64,000 bases of DNA from Candidatus Woesebacteria bacterium. GTDB taxonomy: Bacteria; Patescibacteriota; Microgenomatia; UBA8517. Every line of letters begins with the position of its first letter. Within the stretch, counting starts at the first letter, position 1. The notes beneath the pieces were generated by a model that was not told where the DNA came from, did not search any database, and saw nothing but the letters and a program-made list of their open reading frames with translations. This document shows positions 1 through 63,634 of this stretch, piece by piece. The DNA lies in contig DMZH01000001.1 of the NCBI GenBank assembly GCA_003484955.1, forward strand, positions 215,848 to 279,847. Direction: 5' to 3'. A program made the position numbers and the translations under genes.

Positions 1-306
1 AATTACAGCTTCGGCTTTTTTAAACTTAGCAAGTTTTTCTTCAAGTTCCCTGTGTAAAGTCATCGTACCTGCAATTGTTCTCACGGCTCCCGGCCCGATG
101 CCGTATTTTTCGATAGCCTCAATCGCGGTTTTCTTCATCTCAGGATTATTGGCAAGCCCGAGGTAGTTATTTGAGCAGAAATTTAGGAGTTTTTTACCCT
201 CAATTTGGATTTCGGGCCCGATTGCACTTTCTATTGTCAGGATGTTGTTGTAGAGGTTTTGATCCTTGAGATCTTGGACTTGTTTTTGAATCCAATCTGT
301 GGCCAT
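1..306 (-). CDS. 5'-partial gene (N-terminal ~100 aa in window) of a glycine C-acetyltransferase / 8-amino-7-oxononanoate synthase family (class II aminotransferase, Kbl/BioF-like)
   Basis: Reverse-strand translation from the ATG at 306-304 gives [59 protein letters not shown]...[11 protein letters not shown], matching the conserved N-terminus of Kbl/BioF ([12 protein letters not shown]). It is not in the ORF track because there is no stop in the window. Confidence 0.7.
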
Positions 307-392
307 GAAACGATTATACACCAAAATAGAATTTGTAAAGTCGATTTCTTTTGGTGGCTAATATTTGATATAATCGGATCGTTCGTTTACAT

Positions 393-645
393 TCCCCTGT
401 AGCTCAACGGTAGAGCGAGATCCTGTCGAAAATGGCAGCTCTTGATAGTAATTTCAAGATGAAAATCAGGCTAATTCGGGGAACACCTTTTTAAGGCCAA
501 TCCCGAGCTAAACCACGAAAGTGTAAATGTGTAGAGACTATATACCTGACACCCATTTTGGGTGATGAGATAGTCCAATCCTTTTGGTAACAGAAGGGCT
601 ATTGTAAGATCGAGGTTGGAGGTTCGAATCCTCCCGGGGGAGCCA
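393..645 (+). tRNA. tRNA-Asn (anticodon GUU) interrupted by a group I intron between anticodon positions 35 and 36; CCA is encoded
   Basis: 5' exon 393-426: acceptor tcccctg, ta, D-arm gctc-aacggta-gagc, anticodon stem agatc, loop c-t-g-t. 3' exon 605-645: t-a-a, gatcg, variable aggtt, T-arm ggagg-ttcgaat-cctcc, acceptor cggggga, discriminator g, cca. The cloverleaf forms only if 427-604 is removed. Confidence 0.7.
427..604 (+). ncRNA. Group I self-splicing intron (about 178 nt) inside tRNA-Asn
   Basis: U at the end of the 5' exon can pair with G of an internal guide sequence (exon ctgt with gcag at 435-438). There is a P7-like pairing agacta (535-540) with tagtc (571-575), and a terminal G at 604. 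The intron is inserted in the anticodon loop, as in known bacterial tRNA group I introns. Confidence 0.6.
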
Positions 646-677
646 ATCGGCACTTAATATACCAAAATATTTTTCCT

Positions 678-1721
678 ATGTTGTCTTTACATCAATTTTA
701 CGAGAAGATAAATACGCCTGAGGGAAAACGGGAAATTATTGTAGCCTTTTCAAATATTGACGAAAGAGATCCCAATCAAGCTGATAATTTTTTCCAAACC
801 TATTGTGTAGGTCAATGGAATGCTGATAGAGCTTCAGTCATATATCATCAAAGGGATTACATAGGAAGAATTGACTCTTATCAGGATCTTCTTTTGCTTC
901 TCAAGAAAAATGACAAGGAAAAATTTAATAAAATTCACAAAGGAACCCCATATTGTTTTTTAGGATGGTTATATTTTGACATTGGAGATTATGAAAAGGG
1001 TGTTTTTTACATAGACCTCGCCATTCTTGAGGATATTAGAATGCATGGTACCTATTGGAACAAATCTCCCGCAACAAGATTATTAACTCTAGAAGAAACA
1101 AATGGCGATGTAGAAATCCATAAAAGGCTCGTAAAAAATATTAAAGAGTTACTAAGATTAGAAATTGAAGAATATAAAAAATTGACCAAGGAATCAAAAT
1201 TAACCTCAATAGATAATTTTGTTAAAAATGGTCTTAAAAATCCTCATCACCGAACAATAGTATCCTCACTTTATGCATATATATTGCAGCAAGAGTCACT
1301 ACAGAATTTGATGAAACTAAAAGGTGAAGAGTCAGGTTCTATAGAGCCATTTTTAATTCATTTTAGAAAAGGAACGATAATACTAGAAACAATATTAAAA
1401 GAAACCTATTCAAGTTTGTCCGGGTTAACTTTGGCGAATATCCTAAATGACCCATTTGTAATAAAGGATAGTGGGTTAAAACTTTTGGATTCAGGAAAAG
1501 TAGGCTCAACATTGGAAGATTTAGTTAAAGTACTAATCCCATATTTTGATAGAGGGACAAATGAGCCTCAAAATAAATGGATCACAGTTGCGTATCGTTT
1601 GAGGAATGTTACTAGTCATGGATTGCCTTGGTCAGAAATAATAGATGCAGCTACTTATAAGCGGCTATATCAGCAAATCTTATTTTCAATATTTTATATT
1701 ATCGACAAAAAATATTCGTAG
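678..1721 (+). CDS. Hypothetical protein (347 aa) with a C-terminal HEPN-like R-x4-H motif (RLRNVTSHG)
   Basis: Long ORF immediately 3' of the tRNA. I see no recognisable catalytic family apart from the RNVTSH motif near residue 305, which resembles the R-x4-6-H signature of HEPN RNases. Confidence 0.6.
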   Translation: MLSLHQFYEKINTPEGKREIIVAFSNIDERDPNQADNFFQTYCVGQWNADRASVIYHQRDYIGRIDSYQDLLLLLKKNDKEKFNKIHKGTPYCFLGWLYFDIGDYEKGVFYIDLAILEDIRMHGTYWNKSPATRLLTLEETNGDVEIHKRLVKNIKELLRLEIEEYKKLTKESKLTSIDNFVKNGLKNPHHRTIVSSLYAYILQQESLQNLMKLKGEESGSIEPFLIHFRKGTIILETILKETYSSLSGLTLANILNDPFVIKDSGLKLLDSGKVGSTLEDLVKVLIPYFDRGTNEPQNKWITVAYRLRNVTSHGLPWSEIIDAATYKRLYQQILFSIFYIIDKKYS

Positions 1722-1881
1722 TAATTAATTAAGACTATTTTTTACTAAATTAATTTCCTCTCTGATTTGAGCGACAAGCCTAAAGTTTGAAAAAGCCTCG
1801 TAAATATGTGACAATTGCGTGGTTATATTAGTGTTACGATTCTCGAGCCAGTTGGGTCTTAATCTGACCAATTGATAAATT

Positions 1882-2613
1882 ATGTTGACAAAAGAAGAAG
1901 TAATAAAGGAAATCCAAAAATGGGCCAAGGAGAATGGTGGTCATACTCCAAGTGCAATAAAATTTGAAGAAATAACAGGAATTGGACCATATGAATTACC
2001 GAAATATTCCTGGTCTAATTACGGTGAACTTGTCCTTGAAGCTGGATTAACCCCCAACCTTTTTGATAAAACTAAATATAGTCACCAAGATTTATGCAAG
2101 ATGTTTGTAAGAGTAATTCGCGAAAAGGGAAAATGGCCAACCAGAGCTGTTTTAGAAATTAAACACAGTCACGATTCGAAATTTCCCGCCTCTGCAACTT
2201 TTTACAAAAAACTTGGTCAGACTGGAGATTTGGCACAAACGATTCTCGAATATGTCAAAGACAAACAAGGGTATAAAGACGTAGTAAATATTTGTACACC
2301 AGTTTTAGGAAAATATAAAAATGAAAGTGAGACTTCTGTGGATAATATGGCAGAGCATGGTTTTGTATATTTAGGTTTACAGCACGGGGATTACAAAATT
2401 GGTTTTACAAAAGATTTAGACCGTCGTAGGGAAGATATTACTTTATTAGGATCAGGACCGATGGTTTGGATATATGAAATAGAAACAGATGATATGCGCG
2501 GTGTTGAGAGATATTGGCACAATAGATTTGAATCTAAATGGATCAGGGGTGAGTGGTACAAGTTAAATCAGTCAGATGTAAAAGCTTTCAAGCGCTGGAA
2601 ACGAATCCTTTAA
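1882..2613 (+). CDS. GIY-YIG / T5orf172-domain nuclease-like protein (243 aa) with an N-terminal domain of unknown function
   Basis: C-terminal segment GFVYLGLQHGDYKIGFTKDLDRRREDI...EIE...RGVERYWHNRFESKWIRGEWYKL fits the GIY-(x10)-YIG catalytic core with conserved R and E (T5orf172-type). Confidence 0.7.
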   Translation: MLTKEEVIKEIQKWAKENGGHTPSAIKFEEITGIGPYELPKYSWSNYGELVLEAGLTPNLFDKTKYSHQDLCKMFVRVIREKGKWPTRAVLEIKHSHDSKFPASATFYKKLGQTGDLAQTILEYVKDKQGYKDVVNICTPVLGKYKNESETSVDNMAEHGFVYLGLQHGDYKIGFTKDLDRRREDITLLGSGPMVWIYEIETDDMRGVERYWHNRFESKWIRGEWYKLNQSDVKAFKRWKRIL

Positions 2614-2856
2614 TTAACAAGTTGTGACTTTTGTTAACAATTTGATTTGTTTTAATCTTTCTCTCGCTTGTTCAGCCCAGATTGCATTTTGAAAAGCCTT
2701 GATAACATGGGACAAAGCAGTGGTCAGTGCGAAACTAGGAACAGGGAGCTTAAGATGGCTTTATATATTTCTTCTGAATGGGAAAGGAACATGAGATGAA
2801 AGGTTGTGAATTTTGCCATATAATAAGTCAGTAAATAAAATTACAGGAGAATTAAT

Positions 2857-3072
2857 ATGTGTGAACAAGAAAAACCGTTCCAATGGGCCGAACCGGAAGT
2901 ACCGGAAAAATTGCCAGAATCTACAGAAGATGATGGTATGTCATATACAAGTGTTGCCGAATTACTGGATAATGAATTAAATATTGATATAAAAAGATTG
3001 GGTGAACTGGATATTGAAATTAAAAGGTTAAAAGAAGTAAATTCGGAAATCAACCCATCTGGTGGTCCATAA
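2857..3072 (+). CDS. Small acidic hypothetical protein (71 aa)
   Basis: ORF preceded by a good Shine-Dalgarno (caggagaattaatATG). Coiled-coil-like acidic sequence. Alternatively, the antisense ORF 2841-3053 is the real gene. Confidence 0.4.
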   Translation: MCEQEKPFQWAEPEVPEKLPESTEDDGMSYTSVAELLDNELNIDIKRLGELDIEIKRLKEVNSEINPSGGP

Positions 3073-3087
3073 TTTGTTAAAGAGATT

Positions 3088-3306
3088 TCAACCTATCTCA
3101 AACACCTTGTTTTTTGATTTTTCGCCCCATAGAAGAATCACTTTTCCTCGGCTTACCTCAAAATGTTTTGCCAGGGCTTCAACCACAGCTCTGTTAGCCT
3201 TTCCTTCCAGCGGGGGAGCATTTACATAAACATGAGTGGCTCCCAATAAATCTTTTTCTATTCTTGGATTCTTTGTATTTGGATGAGCGATTATTGATAA
3301 TTTCAT
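3088..3306 (-). CDS. DUF167 / YggU family protein
   Basis: 72 aa; pattern ...YVNAPPLEGKANRAVVEALAKHFEVSRGKVILLWGEKSKNK is typical of UPF0235 (YggU). Confidence 0.7.
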   Translation of the reverse strand: MKLSIIAHPNTKNPRIEKDLLGATHVYVNAPPLEGKANRAVVEALAKHFEVSRGKVILLWGEKSKNKVFEIG

Positions 3307-3397
3307 TAACCAATTATAGTGGTGTTTGACTTCTTTTTGCGTGGGACTTAATGTAAATCCTCAGTTTATATCCAGTTTCTTATGGTAGAGTATAAGT

Positions 3398-3700
3398 GTG
3401 GAAGAAGATTTGCGCATTTTGACTGAAGATGAAATTGAGAAAAAATTAAAGGATTTTCCCGGTTGGGAGTATCGTGATAATAAAATTACTAAGAAGTTCC
3501 AGTTTGGCAGTTTTGATGAAGCGGTTCAGTTTGTGGAAAAGCTTGCTCCATTTTCCAATAGAATAGACCACCACCCCGATGTTCATATTTATTACAAAAA
3601 GATAGTTTTTGATCTTCAGCGCTTCAGTGTGGGAGGAAAAGTGACCCCGAGAGACTTCACTGTTGCCTCAGAAATCGAACGTCTTTTTGCAGCAAAATAG
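3398..3700 (+). CDS. Pterin-4a-carbinolamine dehydratase (PCD/DCoH family)
   Basis: 100 aa; WEY...FQFGSFDEAVQFVEKLA...DHHPDVHIYYKKIVFDLQ matches the PCD family HHP core. Confidence 0.75.
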   Translation: MEEDLRILTEDEIEKKLKDFPGWEYRDNKITKKFQFGSFDEAVQFVEKLAPFSNRIDHHPDVHIYYKKIVFDLQRFSVGGKVTPRDFTVASEIERLFAAK

Positions 3701-3714
3701 ACAGCACACCTACT

Positions 3715-4029
3715 TTATTTTTTCCCGCCACTGTCGGCCTTGGGGCTCATTGTCCGAACAATATCGGAGAGAATATAACCGACAAAAGAATAAACGACTA
3801 TGGCAAAAACCGCAGAAAACTCGAGAGTCAATCTTGGTGCAAGTTCAGGAGAGGGGAACATTCCCTGGAATGGGGTTAAGAGAGGTCTTGTGGTGTCGTA
3901 TACCCAAGTAACGAAAGGAGCCGCAGTTGATGCACCTAAAATCTTCAAAACTATTCTTAAGCCAAGAAGCCCAACGACGATATCTGTTACGAGATTGATA
4001 AGCCTTATCAAAAACCTAGGTGCTAACAT
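3715..4029 (-). CDS. YggT family membrane protein
   Basis: 104 aa two-TM protein; LTPFQGMFPSP...LEFSAVFAIVVY is YggT/Ycf19-like. It sits next to the DUF167 gene, as in yggT-yggU neighbourhoods. Confidence 0.65.
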   Translation of the reverse strand: MLAPRFLIRLINLVTDIVVGLLGLRIVLKILGASTAAPFVTWVYDTTRPLLTPFQGMFPSPELAPRLTLEFSAVFAIVVYSFVGYILSDIVRTMSPKADSGGKK

Positions 4030-4145
4030 GTTCGTGCGTATATTATAGCAAATTTGTCAATGAAAAAACATCAGCCCAATTTGGTGATAAAGAAGAACCT
4101 TTGTTTGACAAACAGAACGGGCAATTAGATGGATTAAATAAAGGG

Positions 4146-4619
4146 TTATTTTTTCTTTATTGAAGCTGTCTTTTTAATCACTTTCTTGACTTTCTCAGGT
4201 TTCACTTCTTTTACCTCGACGGAGTCCTTTTTTACGATAGGTGCCGGGATCAGAATGCTTAAAATTTTGTCAAGCTTGGCATTAACAGCATCAAGCTGAA
4301 CCTTGTTTTGATCAAAACTTGGAGCGGGAGACCTAAAATTGCCTCTTTCAGGCCTTCCTGAATCTGATCTTCCACCATTCATTTTTTCAAAACACTCACT
4401 GCAATAAACCGGCTTACCGTTTGTCGGCCTGAAAGGCACTTGACACTCTTTTCCACAGTTTGAGCAGACAGTTGAGAACATTTCGCGTCTGCCTCTGTCT
4501 TCACCAAAAGAAGATCTTCCCCTTCCTGAAAATCCGCCGCGTCCTCCGCCTCGGCCAAAGCCGCCGCGGTATCCGCCGGACCTATTATCATCTCTATTAA
4601 AATTTCCCATAGTGTTCAT
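4146..4619 (-). CDS. RGG/RG-rich protein with a CxxC...CxxC zinc ribbon (putative nucleic-acid binding)
   Basis: N-terminal GGYRGGFGRGGGRGGFSGRGR repeats, then CSNCGKECQVPFRPTNGKPVYCSECF, then a lysine-rich tail. Confidence 0.6.
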   Translation of the reverse strand: MNTMGNFNRDDNRSGGYRGGFGRGGGRGGFSGRGRSSFGEDRGRREMFSTVCSNCGKECQVPFRPTNGKPVYCSECFEKMNGGRSDSGRPERGNFRSPAPSFDQNKVQLDAVNAKLDKILSILIPAPIVKKDSVEVKEVKPEKVKKVIKKTASIKKK

Positions 4620-4659
4620 TGTATCACAGGTTGTATATTATTGTTGGGGCACTTTGTGG

Positions 4660-5055
4660 CTATTTCTCCACCTCAAACCAGTCAATCGGAGATTGGTCTT
4701 CCGGTTCGCCATTATAGTTGACAGTGATTTCTTCATCTTTTTTGATGGGTCTAATAGCGCGGTAAACCATACACTGGGTTTTAAAGTTTTGTTTCCAATC
4801 GGCATTGGGGGAGTAGGAATGGTTATAGATTGATCCGTAACCAAAAGCCAAAGCGGCTCCGCGGGTACTTCGCCAGGGATAAATATAATGGCTGAGCGGG
4901 GTTTTTTCCAGATTTTTGCGGTCGGTTGGGGTAAAAACCAAAACCGGTGCACTTTCAACTATTTCTCCGTCTTTGATATCTCTGGCCGCAAAAACTCCAA
5001 GACCTTTTTTGGATGTTCTCTTGAGATAAACATTTTTATTCATAGATTTGATCAT
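4660..5055 (-). CDS. SET-domain protein (putative protein-lysine methyltransferase)
   Basis: 131 aa; GLGVFAARDIKDGEIV...YNHSYSPNA...EEITVNY contains the SET signature NHSxxPN and the EEL/ITVNY post-SET-like segment. Confidence 0.7.
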   Translation of the reverse strand: MIKSMNKNVYLKRTSKKGLGVFAARDIKDGEIVESAPVLVFTPTDRKNLEKTPLSHYIYPWRSTRGAALAFGYGSIYNHSYSPNADWKQNFKTQCMVYRAIRPIKKDEEITVNYNGEPEDQSPIDWFEVEK

Positions 5056-63559: not shown

Positions 63560-63634
63560 TGGGGAGTCGTCTAATGGTAGGACAGCAGCCTTTGAAGCTG
63601 TTTATTCTAGGTTCGAATCCTAGCTCCCCAGCCA
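63560..63634 (+). tRNA. tRNA-Gln (anticodon UUG), CCA encoded
   Basis: tggggag-tc-gtct-aatggta-ggac-a-gcagc-ctTTGaa-gctgt-ttatt-ctagg-ttcgaat-cctag-ctcccca-g-cca. Confidence 0.85.

Follow-up and report, generated by a model that had tools for sequence, protein, structure and literature searches.

A swappable slot beside tRNA-Asn in a Woesebacteria genome probably carries two independent accessory genes, one from a candidate new HEPN family

The region between tRNA-Asn and the ORF3-DUF167 backbone of this Woesebacteria locus is best read as a swappable slot that carries two independent accessory genes, and we consider this account as a whole, including the roles proposed below for ORF1 and ORF2, to be reasonably probable. 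Comparison with related loci directly demonstrates that the three genes are independent of one another; ORF1 and ORF2, each a predicted nuclease gene, are unrelated genes in one slot. Our data do not support the original prediction of a three-gene module in which ORF1, ORF2 and ORF3 would form one unit. The three open reading frames themselves were confirmed at their predicted positions and lengths, all on the plus strand (Table 1).

Table 1. Features of the slot and its borders, in window coordinates
Feature	Position	Strand	Description
tRNA-Asn(GUU) gene	388-645	+	Exons 388-426 and 605-645; left border of the slot
Group I intron, 178 nt	427-604	+	Interrupts the anticodon loop between nucleotides 35 and 36; no ORF inside
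Variable low-GC slot	647-2925	.	Window-versus-L070 DNA homology ends at 646 and restarts at 2926
ORF1, 347 aa	678-1721	+	TPR-like N-domain and C-terminal HEPN domain; predicted stand-alone RNase
ORF2, 243 aa	1882-2613	+	Two helix-turn-helix repeats and C-terminal T5orf172/GIY-YIG nuclease domain (160-239)
Conserved segment, ~135 nt, directly after ORF2	2614-2750	-	Probable short convergent ORF or gene remnant (..IKAFQNAIWAEQARERLKQIKLLTKVTTC*)
ORF3, 71 aa, acidic	2857-3072	+	Conserved backbone, convergent with DUF167; outside the accessory cargo

The host locus is assigned to Woesebacteria (CPR). Its slot holds ORF1 and ORF2 and is bounded by tRNA-Asn and by the conserved ORF3-DUF167 backbone. 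Annotation bore out the flanking genes named in the original prediction, with a Kbl-like aminotransferase upstream and DUF167, PCD and YggT downstream. At the same place, L070 (a related Woesebacteria contig) and L071 carry three genes that are unrelated to ORF1 and ORF2. The slot has a GC content of 33.9%, which places it at the 3rd percentile of the window (the whole 64-kb stretch of DNA analysed); for ORF1 the figure is 32.1%, and no 1-kb value in the window is lower (mean 40.6, sd 2.7). Placement immediately after a tRNA gene had been predicted, and the slot, variable and low in GC, does directly follow such a gene at its 3' side, with no integrase gene. The proteins encoded at 678-5055 contain no integrase domain, and no second, att-like copy of the tRNA 3' end was found in the window with up to 3 mismatches allowed. 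Both hallmarks of a tRNA-targeted integrative island, an integrase gene and a direct repeat of the tRNA 3' end, are therefore missing from the sequence searched.

The tRNA gene at the left border contains an intron, as had been predicted, and was identified as tRNA-Asn(GUU). Rfam RF00028 matched at 415-597 (70.7 bits, E 5.9e-17), and the intron boundaries were set by comparison with the intronless L070, to which window positions 1-426 and 605-646 align by BLASTN. ARAGORN missed the split tRNA in the window; its identity follows from the intronless orthologues in L070 (1412-1486) and L011 (5893-5967), both of which the program calls tRNA-Asn(gtt). A group I intron splits the anticodon loop in four of the six ORF1-family loci that are linked to tRNA-Asn.

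The sequence and predicted structure of ORF1 support its assignment as a HEPN protein, in agreement with the original prediction. Its C-terminal domain (residues ~220-347) shows the all-alpha, four-helix up-and-down bundle of the HEPN fold, and the closest solved folds include the HepT toxins of HEPN-MNT pairs (7ae2, 5yep, 8xdj). Two conserved motifs accompany the fold. The RLRNVTSHG motif on which the prediction was based lies at residues 307-315 and corresponds to R309-N310-x3-H314, which fits Rx4-6H with a polar residue after R, is invariant in 29 family members and is 99% conserved in 189. The acidic Ex3[KR] motif of helix 1 is present as E237-x3-K241 (E237 90% and K241 86% conserved) within a predicted helix at 223-243. 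The N-terminal domain (residues ~1-213) is all-helical and TPR-like, and bears an H87-K88-G89/E118-D119 patch that is near-invariant in the family, its conservation equalling that of the HEPN RNase signature.

The ORF1 family comprises 1019 sequence clusters from bacteria and archaea, with a patchy spread over CPR, Desulfobacterota, Chloroflexota, Bacteroidota, Planctomycetota and several archaeal lineages, and includes one cultured strain, Desulfosarcina cetonica JCM 12296. The original prediction recognised no family for ORF1, and this stood: searches of Pfam, PADLOC, NCBIfam, PHROGs and PDB, with the single sequence and with a profile, gave no meaningful sequence match. The Pfam HEPN models covered (LA2681, Apea, AbiU2, Abi_2, DUF4145, Swt1, MAE_28990 and others) matched none of 39 family members (29 + 10) at E <= 1, and the only Pfam matches of members were single TPR matches, all sub-threshold. 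Likewise, the system protein models of PADLOC-DB 2.0 gave 0 matches at E <= 1 to ORF1, ORF2 or ORF3. The N-terminal region of ORF1 matched no ATPase domain, no relative was found in IMG/VR viral contigs, and a literature search under 'TPR-HEPN'-style names found no description. We propose the family, nameless in the libraries searched, as a candidate new HEPN family rather than a new system.

Defence surroundings had been suggested as a check, and ORF1 relatives are indeed found among defence genes. In L023, an ORF1 homologue lies in the order hsdM-hsdS-ORF1 homologue-hsdR of a type I restriction-modification operon, with gene ends abutting or overlapping, and in L016 hsdS overlaps the homologue. 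A type III Mod gene directly follows it in L022 and L059, and an Mrr gene adjoins it in L055. Moreover, a Gabija-like OLD-TOPRIM and UvrD pair lies upstream in L007, and TIR genes lie nearby in L002. Restriction or defence neighbours occur at ~10-12 of 63 ORF1 loci, which is a descriptive count and not a statistical enrichment; embedding in restriction-modification genes was seen at L023, L016, L022 and L059, and is absent in the window and most loci. Clustering of ~226 flanking ORFs from these 63 loci revealed no recurrent neighbour: none of the families was present at more than three loci, and no MNT gene was found. The patchy distribution of ORF1, the lowest GC in the window and the replacement of the slot in L070 suggest an acquired accessory gene.

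We infer that ORF1 is a stand-alone, self-regulated defence RNase. Two copies would dimerize via their HEPN domains, giving the composite R/H active site that is usual for such proteins, and the N-terminal domain with its H-K-G and E-D patch would hold ORF1 inactive. The trigger may be, for example, an infecting phage or the loss of a restriction system encoded next to it; once active, the enzyme would cleave cellular RNA, possibly tRNA, and stop growth. Such a protein would be a single-gene effector of the abortive-infection type.

The predicted RNase ORF1 can be compared closely with the single-gene HEPN anti-phage RNases DARNA/PD-T7-3, ApeA, PD-T4-2 and HepS. However, none of their PADLOC models matches ORF1, whose N-domain is TPR-like with its own HKG/ED patch, and the domain order is reversed relative to DARNA, in which HEPN is N-terminal and not C-terminal as in ORF1. 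The anticodon nucleases PrrC and RloC also have a HEPN-type nuclease, and the ORF1 relative of L023, between hsdS and hsdR, occupies the position of prrC in the prr locus. In contrast to them, ORF1 has no ABC-ATPase N-domain but an all-helical TPR-like one, shares no sequence similarity, lies outside any restriction-modification operon in the window, and has tRNA as a possible target only. LA2681 and C6orf70/DUF4209 proteins fuse an intact-motif HEPN domain to TPR repeats in bacteria and archaea, with some members in restriction-modification-related operons (Anantharaman et al. 2013; PMC3710099). The ORF1 family resembles them in domain combination, contexts and distribution, but 39 of its members gave no match to any Pfam HEPN model, theirs included (E <= 1); for LA2681, the comparison covered the profile and the published description. 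HEPN-MNT (HepT-MntA) pairs provide the closest solved folds, whereas ORF1 has no MNT neighbour and is ~2.5 times longer, with an extra N-terminal domain.

The GIY-YIG/T5orf172 call for ORF2 was upheld, since its nuclease domain matches Pfam MUG113 (3.3e-11, 44 bits; cut-off 22.3) and T5orf172 (2e-6, 28.7 bits; cut-off 20). We found the GIY-YIG alpha/beta fold with the conserved Tyr, Arg and Glu, and these catalytic-type residues are invariant; the overall fold matches SLX1 and helix-turn-helix domains. The helix-turn-helix repeats, of the 'homing endonuclease associated' kind, span residues ~3-58 and 66-125. ORF2 is predicted to be a T5orf172 (GIY-YIG) DNA nuclease that binds DNA via these two repeats.

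Relatives of ORF2 form more than 180 clusters of constant architecture and length with 50-93% identity, and an alignment of 26 members from Microgenomates and Parcubacteria has a mean column identity of 64% over the full length. The copy in the window lies nearer to those annotated as Parcubacteria (65%) than to the remaining ones from Microgenomates (54-59%). ARAGORN placed a tRNA-Gln gene 36-134 nt upstream in nine of 65 loci, and alignment of upstream regions revealed tRNA-like sequence at a few further loci. ORF2 resembles a free-standing gene for a homing-type nuclease, one that takes up sites beside tRNA genes. A conserved ~150-nt element, absent from Rfam, was also observed upstream of 13 ORF2 loci. 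L068 carries the gene, and L070 and L071 lack it in the syntenic slot; no identical empty site was found. An 820-bp DNA match of 90.6% in L068 was considered as a transposed ORF2 unit and dropped, since L068 is colinear with the window (ORF2, a 55-nt element, zf_Tbcl and SET). Because that copy sits in a colinear neighbourhood, it gives no direct mobility signal for ORF2.

T5orf172 proteins are documented phage homing endonucleases (PMC10448857). Like those of ICP1 and T5-like phages, and like the Seg-type GIY-YIG enzymes of T4, ORF2 is free-standing and lies beside highly conserved genes, and, as in the phage T5orf172 enzymes, its nuclease and its repeated DNA-binding modules occupy opposite ends of the protein. 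In contrast, ORF2 is chromosomal in CPR bacteria and unusually conserved, its homing is putative, and its repeats are helix-turn-helix modules of the PF18780 type, not CapR zinc fingers. An earlier suggestion that ORF2 serves the tRNA intron was not supported: the 178-nt intron has no ORF, the distance from the tRNA to ORF2 on its 3' side is 1.2 kb and spans ORF1, and ORF2 relatives flank tRNA-Gln genes that are without an intron, as ARAGORN calls ordinary genes of 72-74 nt.

The segment at 2614-2750 accompanies ORF2 homologues at several loci (BLASTN and alignment). A structured RNA was rejected here, with no Rfam match and a fold z-score of 0.29, and the segment was therefore reread as probably a short minus-strand ORF or remnant; its minus-strand translations are conserved and third-position variation is in excess. 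ORF3 has, as predicted, the features of a small acidic protein with a strong RBS (pI 4.2; 18 D+E versus 7 K+R; AGGAG 8 nt before the ATG). Its homologues, with 57-62% identity, adjoin DUF167 in L070, L071 and L072, all of which lack ORF1 and ORF2. Therefore, ORF3 is not the antitoxin or neutralising partner that had been suggested; by comparative sequence evidence, it is a lineage-specific backbone gene.

It could be argued that ORF1 (RNase), ORF2 (DNase) and ORF3 (acidic neutraliser) constitute one toxin or defence module, as four assemblies of this species, with consecutive accessions, have the three genes side by side on one strand, two of the genes encode nuclease-type domains, and GC is low throughout the slot. 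However, the co-occurrence elsewhere that had been proposed as a check was not found: tBLASTN detected no ORF2 or ORF3 relative within ~6 kb at 67 ORF1 loci and no ORF1 relative at 82 ORF2 loci. L006 and L011 have ORF1 (86% and 80% identity) without ORF2, in L068 no ORF1 directly precedes ORF2 (93% identity), ORF3 is kept with DUF167 in three relatives that lack both, and the intergenic gaps measure 160 and 243 nt, all of which makes one module extremely improbable. For ORF2, the alternative is a domesticated, CPR-wide cellular nuclease, acting for example in repair or recombination, rather than a selfish homing gene. Its unusually strong conservation (50-93% identity at constant length) suits a domesticated role in the cell better than selfish DNA in decay, and the mean column identity of the 26 aligned members, the constant architecture and the colinear L068 neighbourhood point the same way. 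Nevertheless, the gene is missing at the syntenic slot of L070 and L071, its genomic contexts vary, the window copy is nearer to Parcubacteria-annotated copies, and homing endonucleases typically have this domain architecture; we therefore regard domestication as somewhat unlikely. A free-standing homing-type nuclease aimed at tRNA-gene neighbourhoods remains a plausible reading of ORF2.

ORF1 relatives adjoin tRNA-Asn in five CPR genomes, which could instead indicate a tRNA-related housekeeping role, with ORF1 as an RNA-processing or quality-control enzyme and not a defence gene. In the window, L006, L008/9, L011 and L012, relatives with 30-86% identity follow tRNA-Asn on its 3' side; the window and L011 share tRNA, spacer and ORF1 as one homologous block, with different upstream genes (Kbl versus RpoD), and tRNA is often the cleavage target of HEPN enzymes. 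We think this role quite unlikely, since most of the 63 ORF1 loci have no nearby tRNA, L070 has the same tRNA-Asn and no ORF1, the family is patchy across phyla and occurs within restriction-modification operons, and the GC anomaly points to acquisition. Similarly improbable is a toxin-antitoxin pair of the HEPN-MNT or AbiF type in which ORF1 would be the toxin and an unrecognised small ORF or an RNA, such as the upstream tRNA or leader, the antitoxin. HepT toxins are among the nearest solved folds of ORF1, RNA antitoxins restrain some HEPN toxins, and the tRNA lies 33 nt upstream, but the 63 loci have neither MNT nor another recurrent neighbour, tandem repeats looked for upstream were not found, and ORF1 could be regulated from within by its own conserved 210-residue N-terminal domain. 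It is very improbable that ORF1-family proteins are anticodon-loop nucleases coupled to a co-transcribed tRNA-Asn gene that acts as decoy, antidote or protected spare copy; if true, this coupling would be a new immunity or addiction unit of tRNA gene plus HEPN in CPR bacteria.

Taken together, separating ORF1 from ORF2 and ORF3 averts effort on a three-gene system that lacks comparative support. The ORF1 family, of more than 1000 clusters, bears a HEPN RNase signature, yet has no name, profile or solved structure in the libraries searched, and its repeated placement in restriction-modification operons makes it a concrete candidate for a single-gene anti-phage effector. Furthermore, tRNA genes of CPR bacteria attract T5orf172, small GIY-YIG and helix-turn-helix endonuclease-like genes as well as group I introns, and the nuclease-type genes at these sites bear on DNA exchange among very small genomes.

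The three genes 3' of the tRNA (ORF1, ORF2 and ORF3) lie on the plus strand where the original prediction placed them, and all three products are annotated as hypothetical proteins in the matching database entry. They do not form a module. Searches with tBLASTN found zero matches to ORF2 or ORF3 in 67 ORF1-family loci and zero to ORF1 in 82 ORF2-family loci, so the proposed joint unit does not hold. When ~226 flanking ORFs from 63 loci were clustered, no neighbour family occurred in more than three ORF1 loci; thus ORF1 has no fixed partner. Other genes come next in its close relatives, L006 (86% identity) and L011 (80%), and in L068, which carries the nearest ORF2 relative beyond this species (93%), the upstream gene differs. 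In the related contig L070, a Kbl-like gene and an intronless tRNA-Asn are followed by three unrelated genes (506, 181 and 237 aa), an ORF3 homologue and DUF167. The window aligns with L070 at the DNA level over 1-426 and 605-646 and again from 2926; therefore, 647-2925 is a variable slot and ORF3 is part of the conserved backbone. ORF3 homologues with 57-62% identity are convergent with DUF167 in L070, L071 and L072, which speaks against ORF3 as an antitoxin-like partner.

The group I intron expected in the upstream tRNA was recovered by Rfam (415-597, 70.7 bits). ARAGORN called no tRNA at this site in the window, and the gene was identified as tRNA-Asn with a 178-nt intron because the halves of uninterrupted tRNA-Asn(GUU) genes on two related contigs align to 388-426 and 605-645. 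A very short group I intron interrupts tRNA-Asn(GUU) at the same anticodon point, between GU and U, in several Microgenomates; its absence in close relatives makes it polymorphic between related genomes. The 5' end of the L012 tRNA-Asn overlaps a small GIY-YIG ORF of the URI type (69-407).

As anticipated, ORF2 is a GIY-YIG/T5orf172 protein, with residues 160-239 matching MUG113/T5orf172 above the curated Pfam cut-offs. Its family comprises >180 clusters across Microgenomates and Parcubacteria (50-93% identity). Residues G160, G174, R182 and E209 are invariant, and many homologues carry PF18780, the 'homing endonuclease associated repeat', in the N-terminal half. The gene lies 36-134 nt 3' of a tRNA-Gln on the same strand in 9 of 65 metagenome loci (ARAGORN), and alignment of upstream regions revealed tRNA-like sequence in a few more. 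In phages, T5orf172 proteins are known to act as homing endonucleases (PMC10448857). We favour ORF2 as a probable free-standing homing-type nuclease gene that settles beside tRNA genes. ORF2 may alternatively have a domesticated cellular role, to which the strong sequence conservation and the colinear position of the L068 copy would point. The suggestion that ORF2 serves the tRNA-Asn intron was rejected, as the intron contains no ORF and the tRNA-Gln genes beside ORF2 relatives are ordinary 72-74 nt genes (ARAGORN).

The tRNA-Gln-linked loci share a promoter-like GGACAC...TATAATTA spacer between the tRNA and the ORF2-family gene. A similar TATAAT-type spacer follows the window's tRNA-Gln(UUG), whose downstream gene (MSYDLHLYNEPKG...) is not an ORF2 homologue; tRNA-Glu and tRNA-Lys are encoded on the other strand, ~0.9 kb upstream. 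A well-conserved ~150-nt non-coding element just upstream of the gene in thirteen ORF2 loci matched no Rfam family at gathering score. Directly 3' of ORF2 and several homologues is a conserved ~135-nt segment, which probably encodes a conserved peptide (..IKAFQNPIWAEQARERLKQIKLL..) on its minus strand and gave no Rfam match, Pfam match or RNA-fold signal. In L010 it forms the C-terminus of a 125-aa ORF, and a RAYT-like transposase gene adjoins one partial copy. A set of 219-255-aa proteins, homologous to one another (BLASTP E 1e-10), is encoded directly 5' of tRNA-Asn or tRNA-Gln genes. The N-terminus of these proteins is helix-turn-helix-like, they share a G-x-A-x4-EG motif, and none matches Pfam; they may constitute a further tRNA-gene-associated family of endonuclease-like proteins.

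Features of the window and of related loci (L-numbers)
Feature	Location	Strand	Remarks
ORF1	window 678-1721	+	347 aa
ORF2	window 1882-2613	+	243 aa
ORF3	window 2857-3072	+	71 aa
tRNA-Asn intron	window 427-604		178 nt, between anticodon nucleotides 35 and 36; from intronless relatives
tRNA-Asn(GUU), intron-bearing	window 388-645; L006 683-995; L008 6578-6850; L012 ~300-592
tRNA-Asn(GUU), intronless	L011 5893-5967; L070 1412-1486
tRNA-Gln(UUG)	window 63560-63634		downstream gene from 63666 onward
~135-nt segment	window 2614-2750	-
~135-nt segment, copies	L075 1461-1552; L115/116/118 4475-4610 and 3258-3312; L126 303-436; L068 3724-3775; L010 7555-7638
~150-nt upstream element	including L080, L081, L087, L089, L096, L098, L099, L100, L101, L104, L119
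ORF2-family genes 3' of tRNA-Gln(CUG/UUG)	L069, L084, L085, L086, L103, L105, L109, L122, L125
Further loci entered with this tRNA-Gln-linked set	L074, L114, L123, L124
219-255-aa proteins 5' of tRNAs	L008 5897-6664; L084 3227-3886; upstream ORFs of L085, L086, L103
Defence region	L007 850-6431		OLD-TOPRIM/AAA_15-21 protein, UvrD helicase, 433-aa and 155-aa proteins

ORF1 has the lowest 1-kb GC value of the whole window (32.1%; mean 40.6%, sd 2.7). Searches against Pfam, PADLOC, NCBIfam, PHROG and PDB sequences returned only one sub-threshold TPR repeat. An AlphaFold2 model from an alignment of 29 homologues is all-helical (mean pLDDT 90.6). Among 189 diverse relatives, R309, N310 and H314 are each 99% conserved, E237 90% and K241 86%, fitting both HEPN signatures, Rx4-6H and Ex3[KR] (PMC3710099). 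Model and motifs thus bear out the HEPN assignment, and ORF1 is a predicted HEPN protein of an unnamed family. Moreover, an N-terminal patch is as conserved as the HEPN motif (H87-K88-G89 98-99%, E118 97%, D119 100%), and therefore this domain exceeds a generic scaffold. When 1.84 billion representative proteins were searched with a profile, 1019 clusters passed E <= 1e-3, 698 of them E <= 1e-10; among the matches listed, nearly all complete sequences are ~320-440 aa long. Ten distant members matched no Pfam HEPN family. The family may overlap the TPR-linked LA2681 group (Anantharaman et al.), with which it was compared only via absent Pfam matches.

The distribution of ORF1 is accessory and patchy. 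One scan of species-representative genomes gave 57 loci, and hosts include CPR, Desulfobacterota (among them the cultured Desulfosarcina cetonica JCM 12296), Chloroflexota, Bacteroidota, Planctomycetota, Nitrospirota and several archaeal lineages; IMG/VR viral contigs yielded no relative. In L023, the homologue is embedded in a type I restriction-modification operon, flanked by hsdS and hsdR, with which its ends abut or overlap; prrC has the same position in the prr locus. The L016 homologue overlaps the hsdS end, and those in L022 and L059 are immediately followed by a type III methylase. Further adjoining genes include those for Mrr, a type ISP enzyme, CAP12-type TIR and NYN; TIR genes lie near the L002 homologue, and a Gabija-like OLD-TOPRIM and UvrD pair lies upstream of that in L007. 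These neighbours are a descriptive tally, not a measured enrichment over background. The L007 homologue is 68% identical to ORF1. After the L007 pair come a 433-aa protein and a 155-aa protein, the latter with its own R-x4-H motif (IRCNLFH), and this part of the CPR contig resembles a compact defence island.

We propose that ORF1 would act as a stand-alone HEPN RNase, probably dimeric, whose N-terminal domain would keep it inactive until an infection-related cue frees it to attack an RNA target. Such a mode would resemble that of PrrC and of two HEPN proteins that provide defence as single genes, DARNA/PD-T7-3 and ApeA. In five CPR genomes (window, L006, L008/9, L011 and L012), tRNA-Asn, with or without an intron, precedes ORF1 homologues of 30% to 86% identity, and tRNA, spacer and ORF1 are homologous as one unit between the window and L011 despite different upstream genes. 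No integrase domain was found among the proteins encoded at 678-5055, in line with the original prediction, nor any att-like repeat in the window. A tRNA-linked housekeeping role, or restraint of ORF1 by an RNA antitoxin, is less likely, as both fit poorly with the family's wider distribution.

Taken together, ORF1 is the valuable part of this locus: a testable candidate anti-phage effector from a large, unnamed family of predicted HEPN proteins, in which the N-terminal domain is distinctive and some members are embedded in restriction-modification operons.
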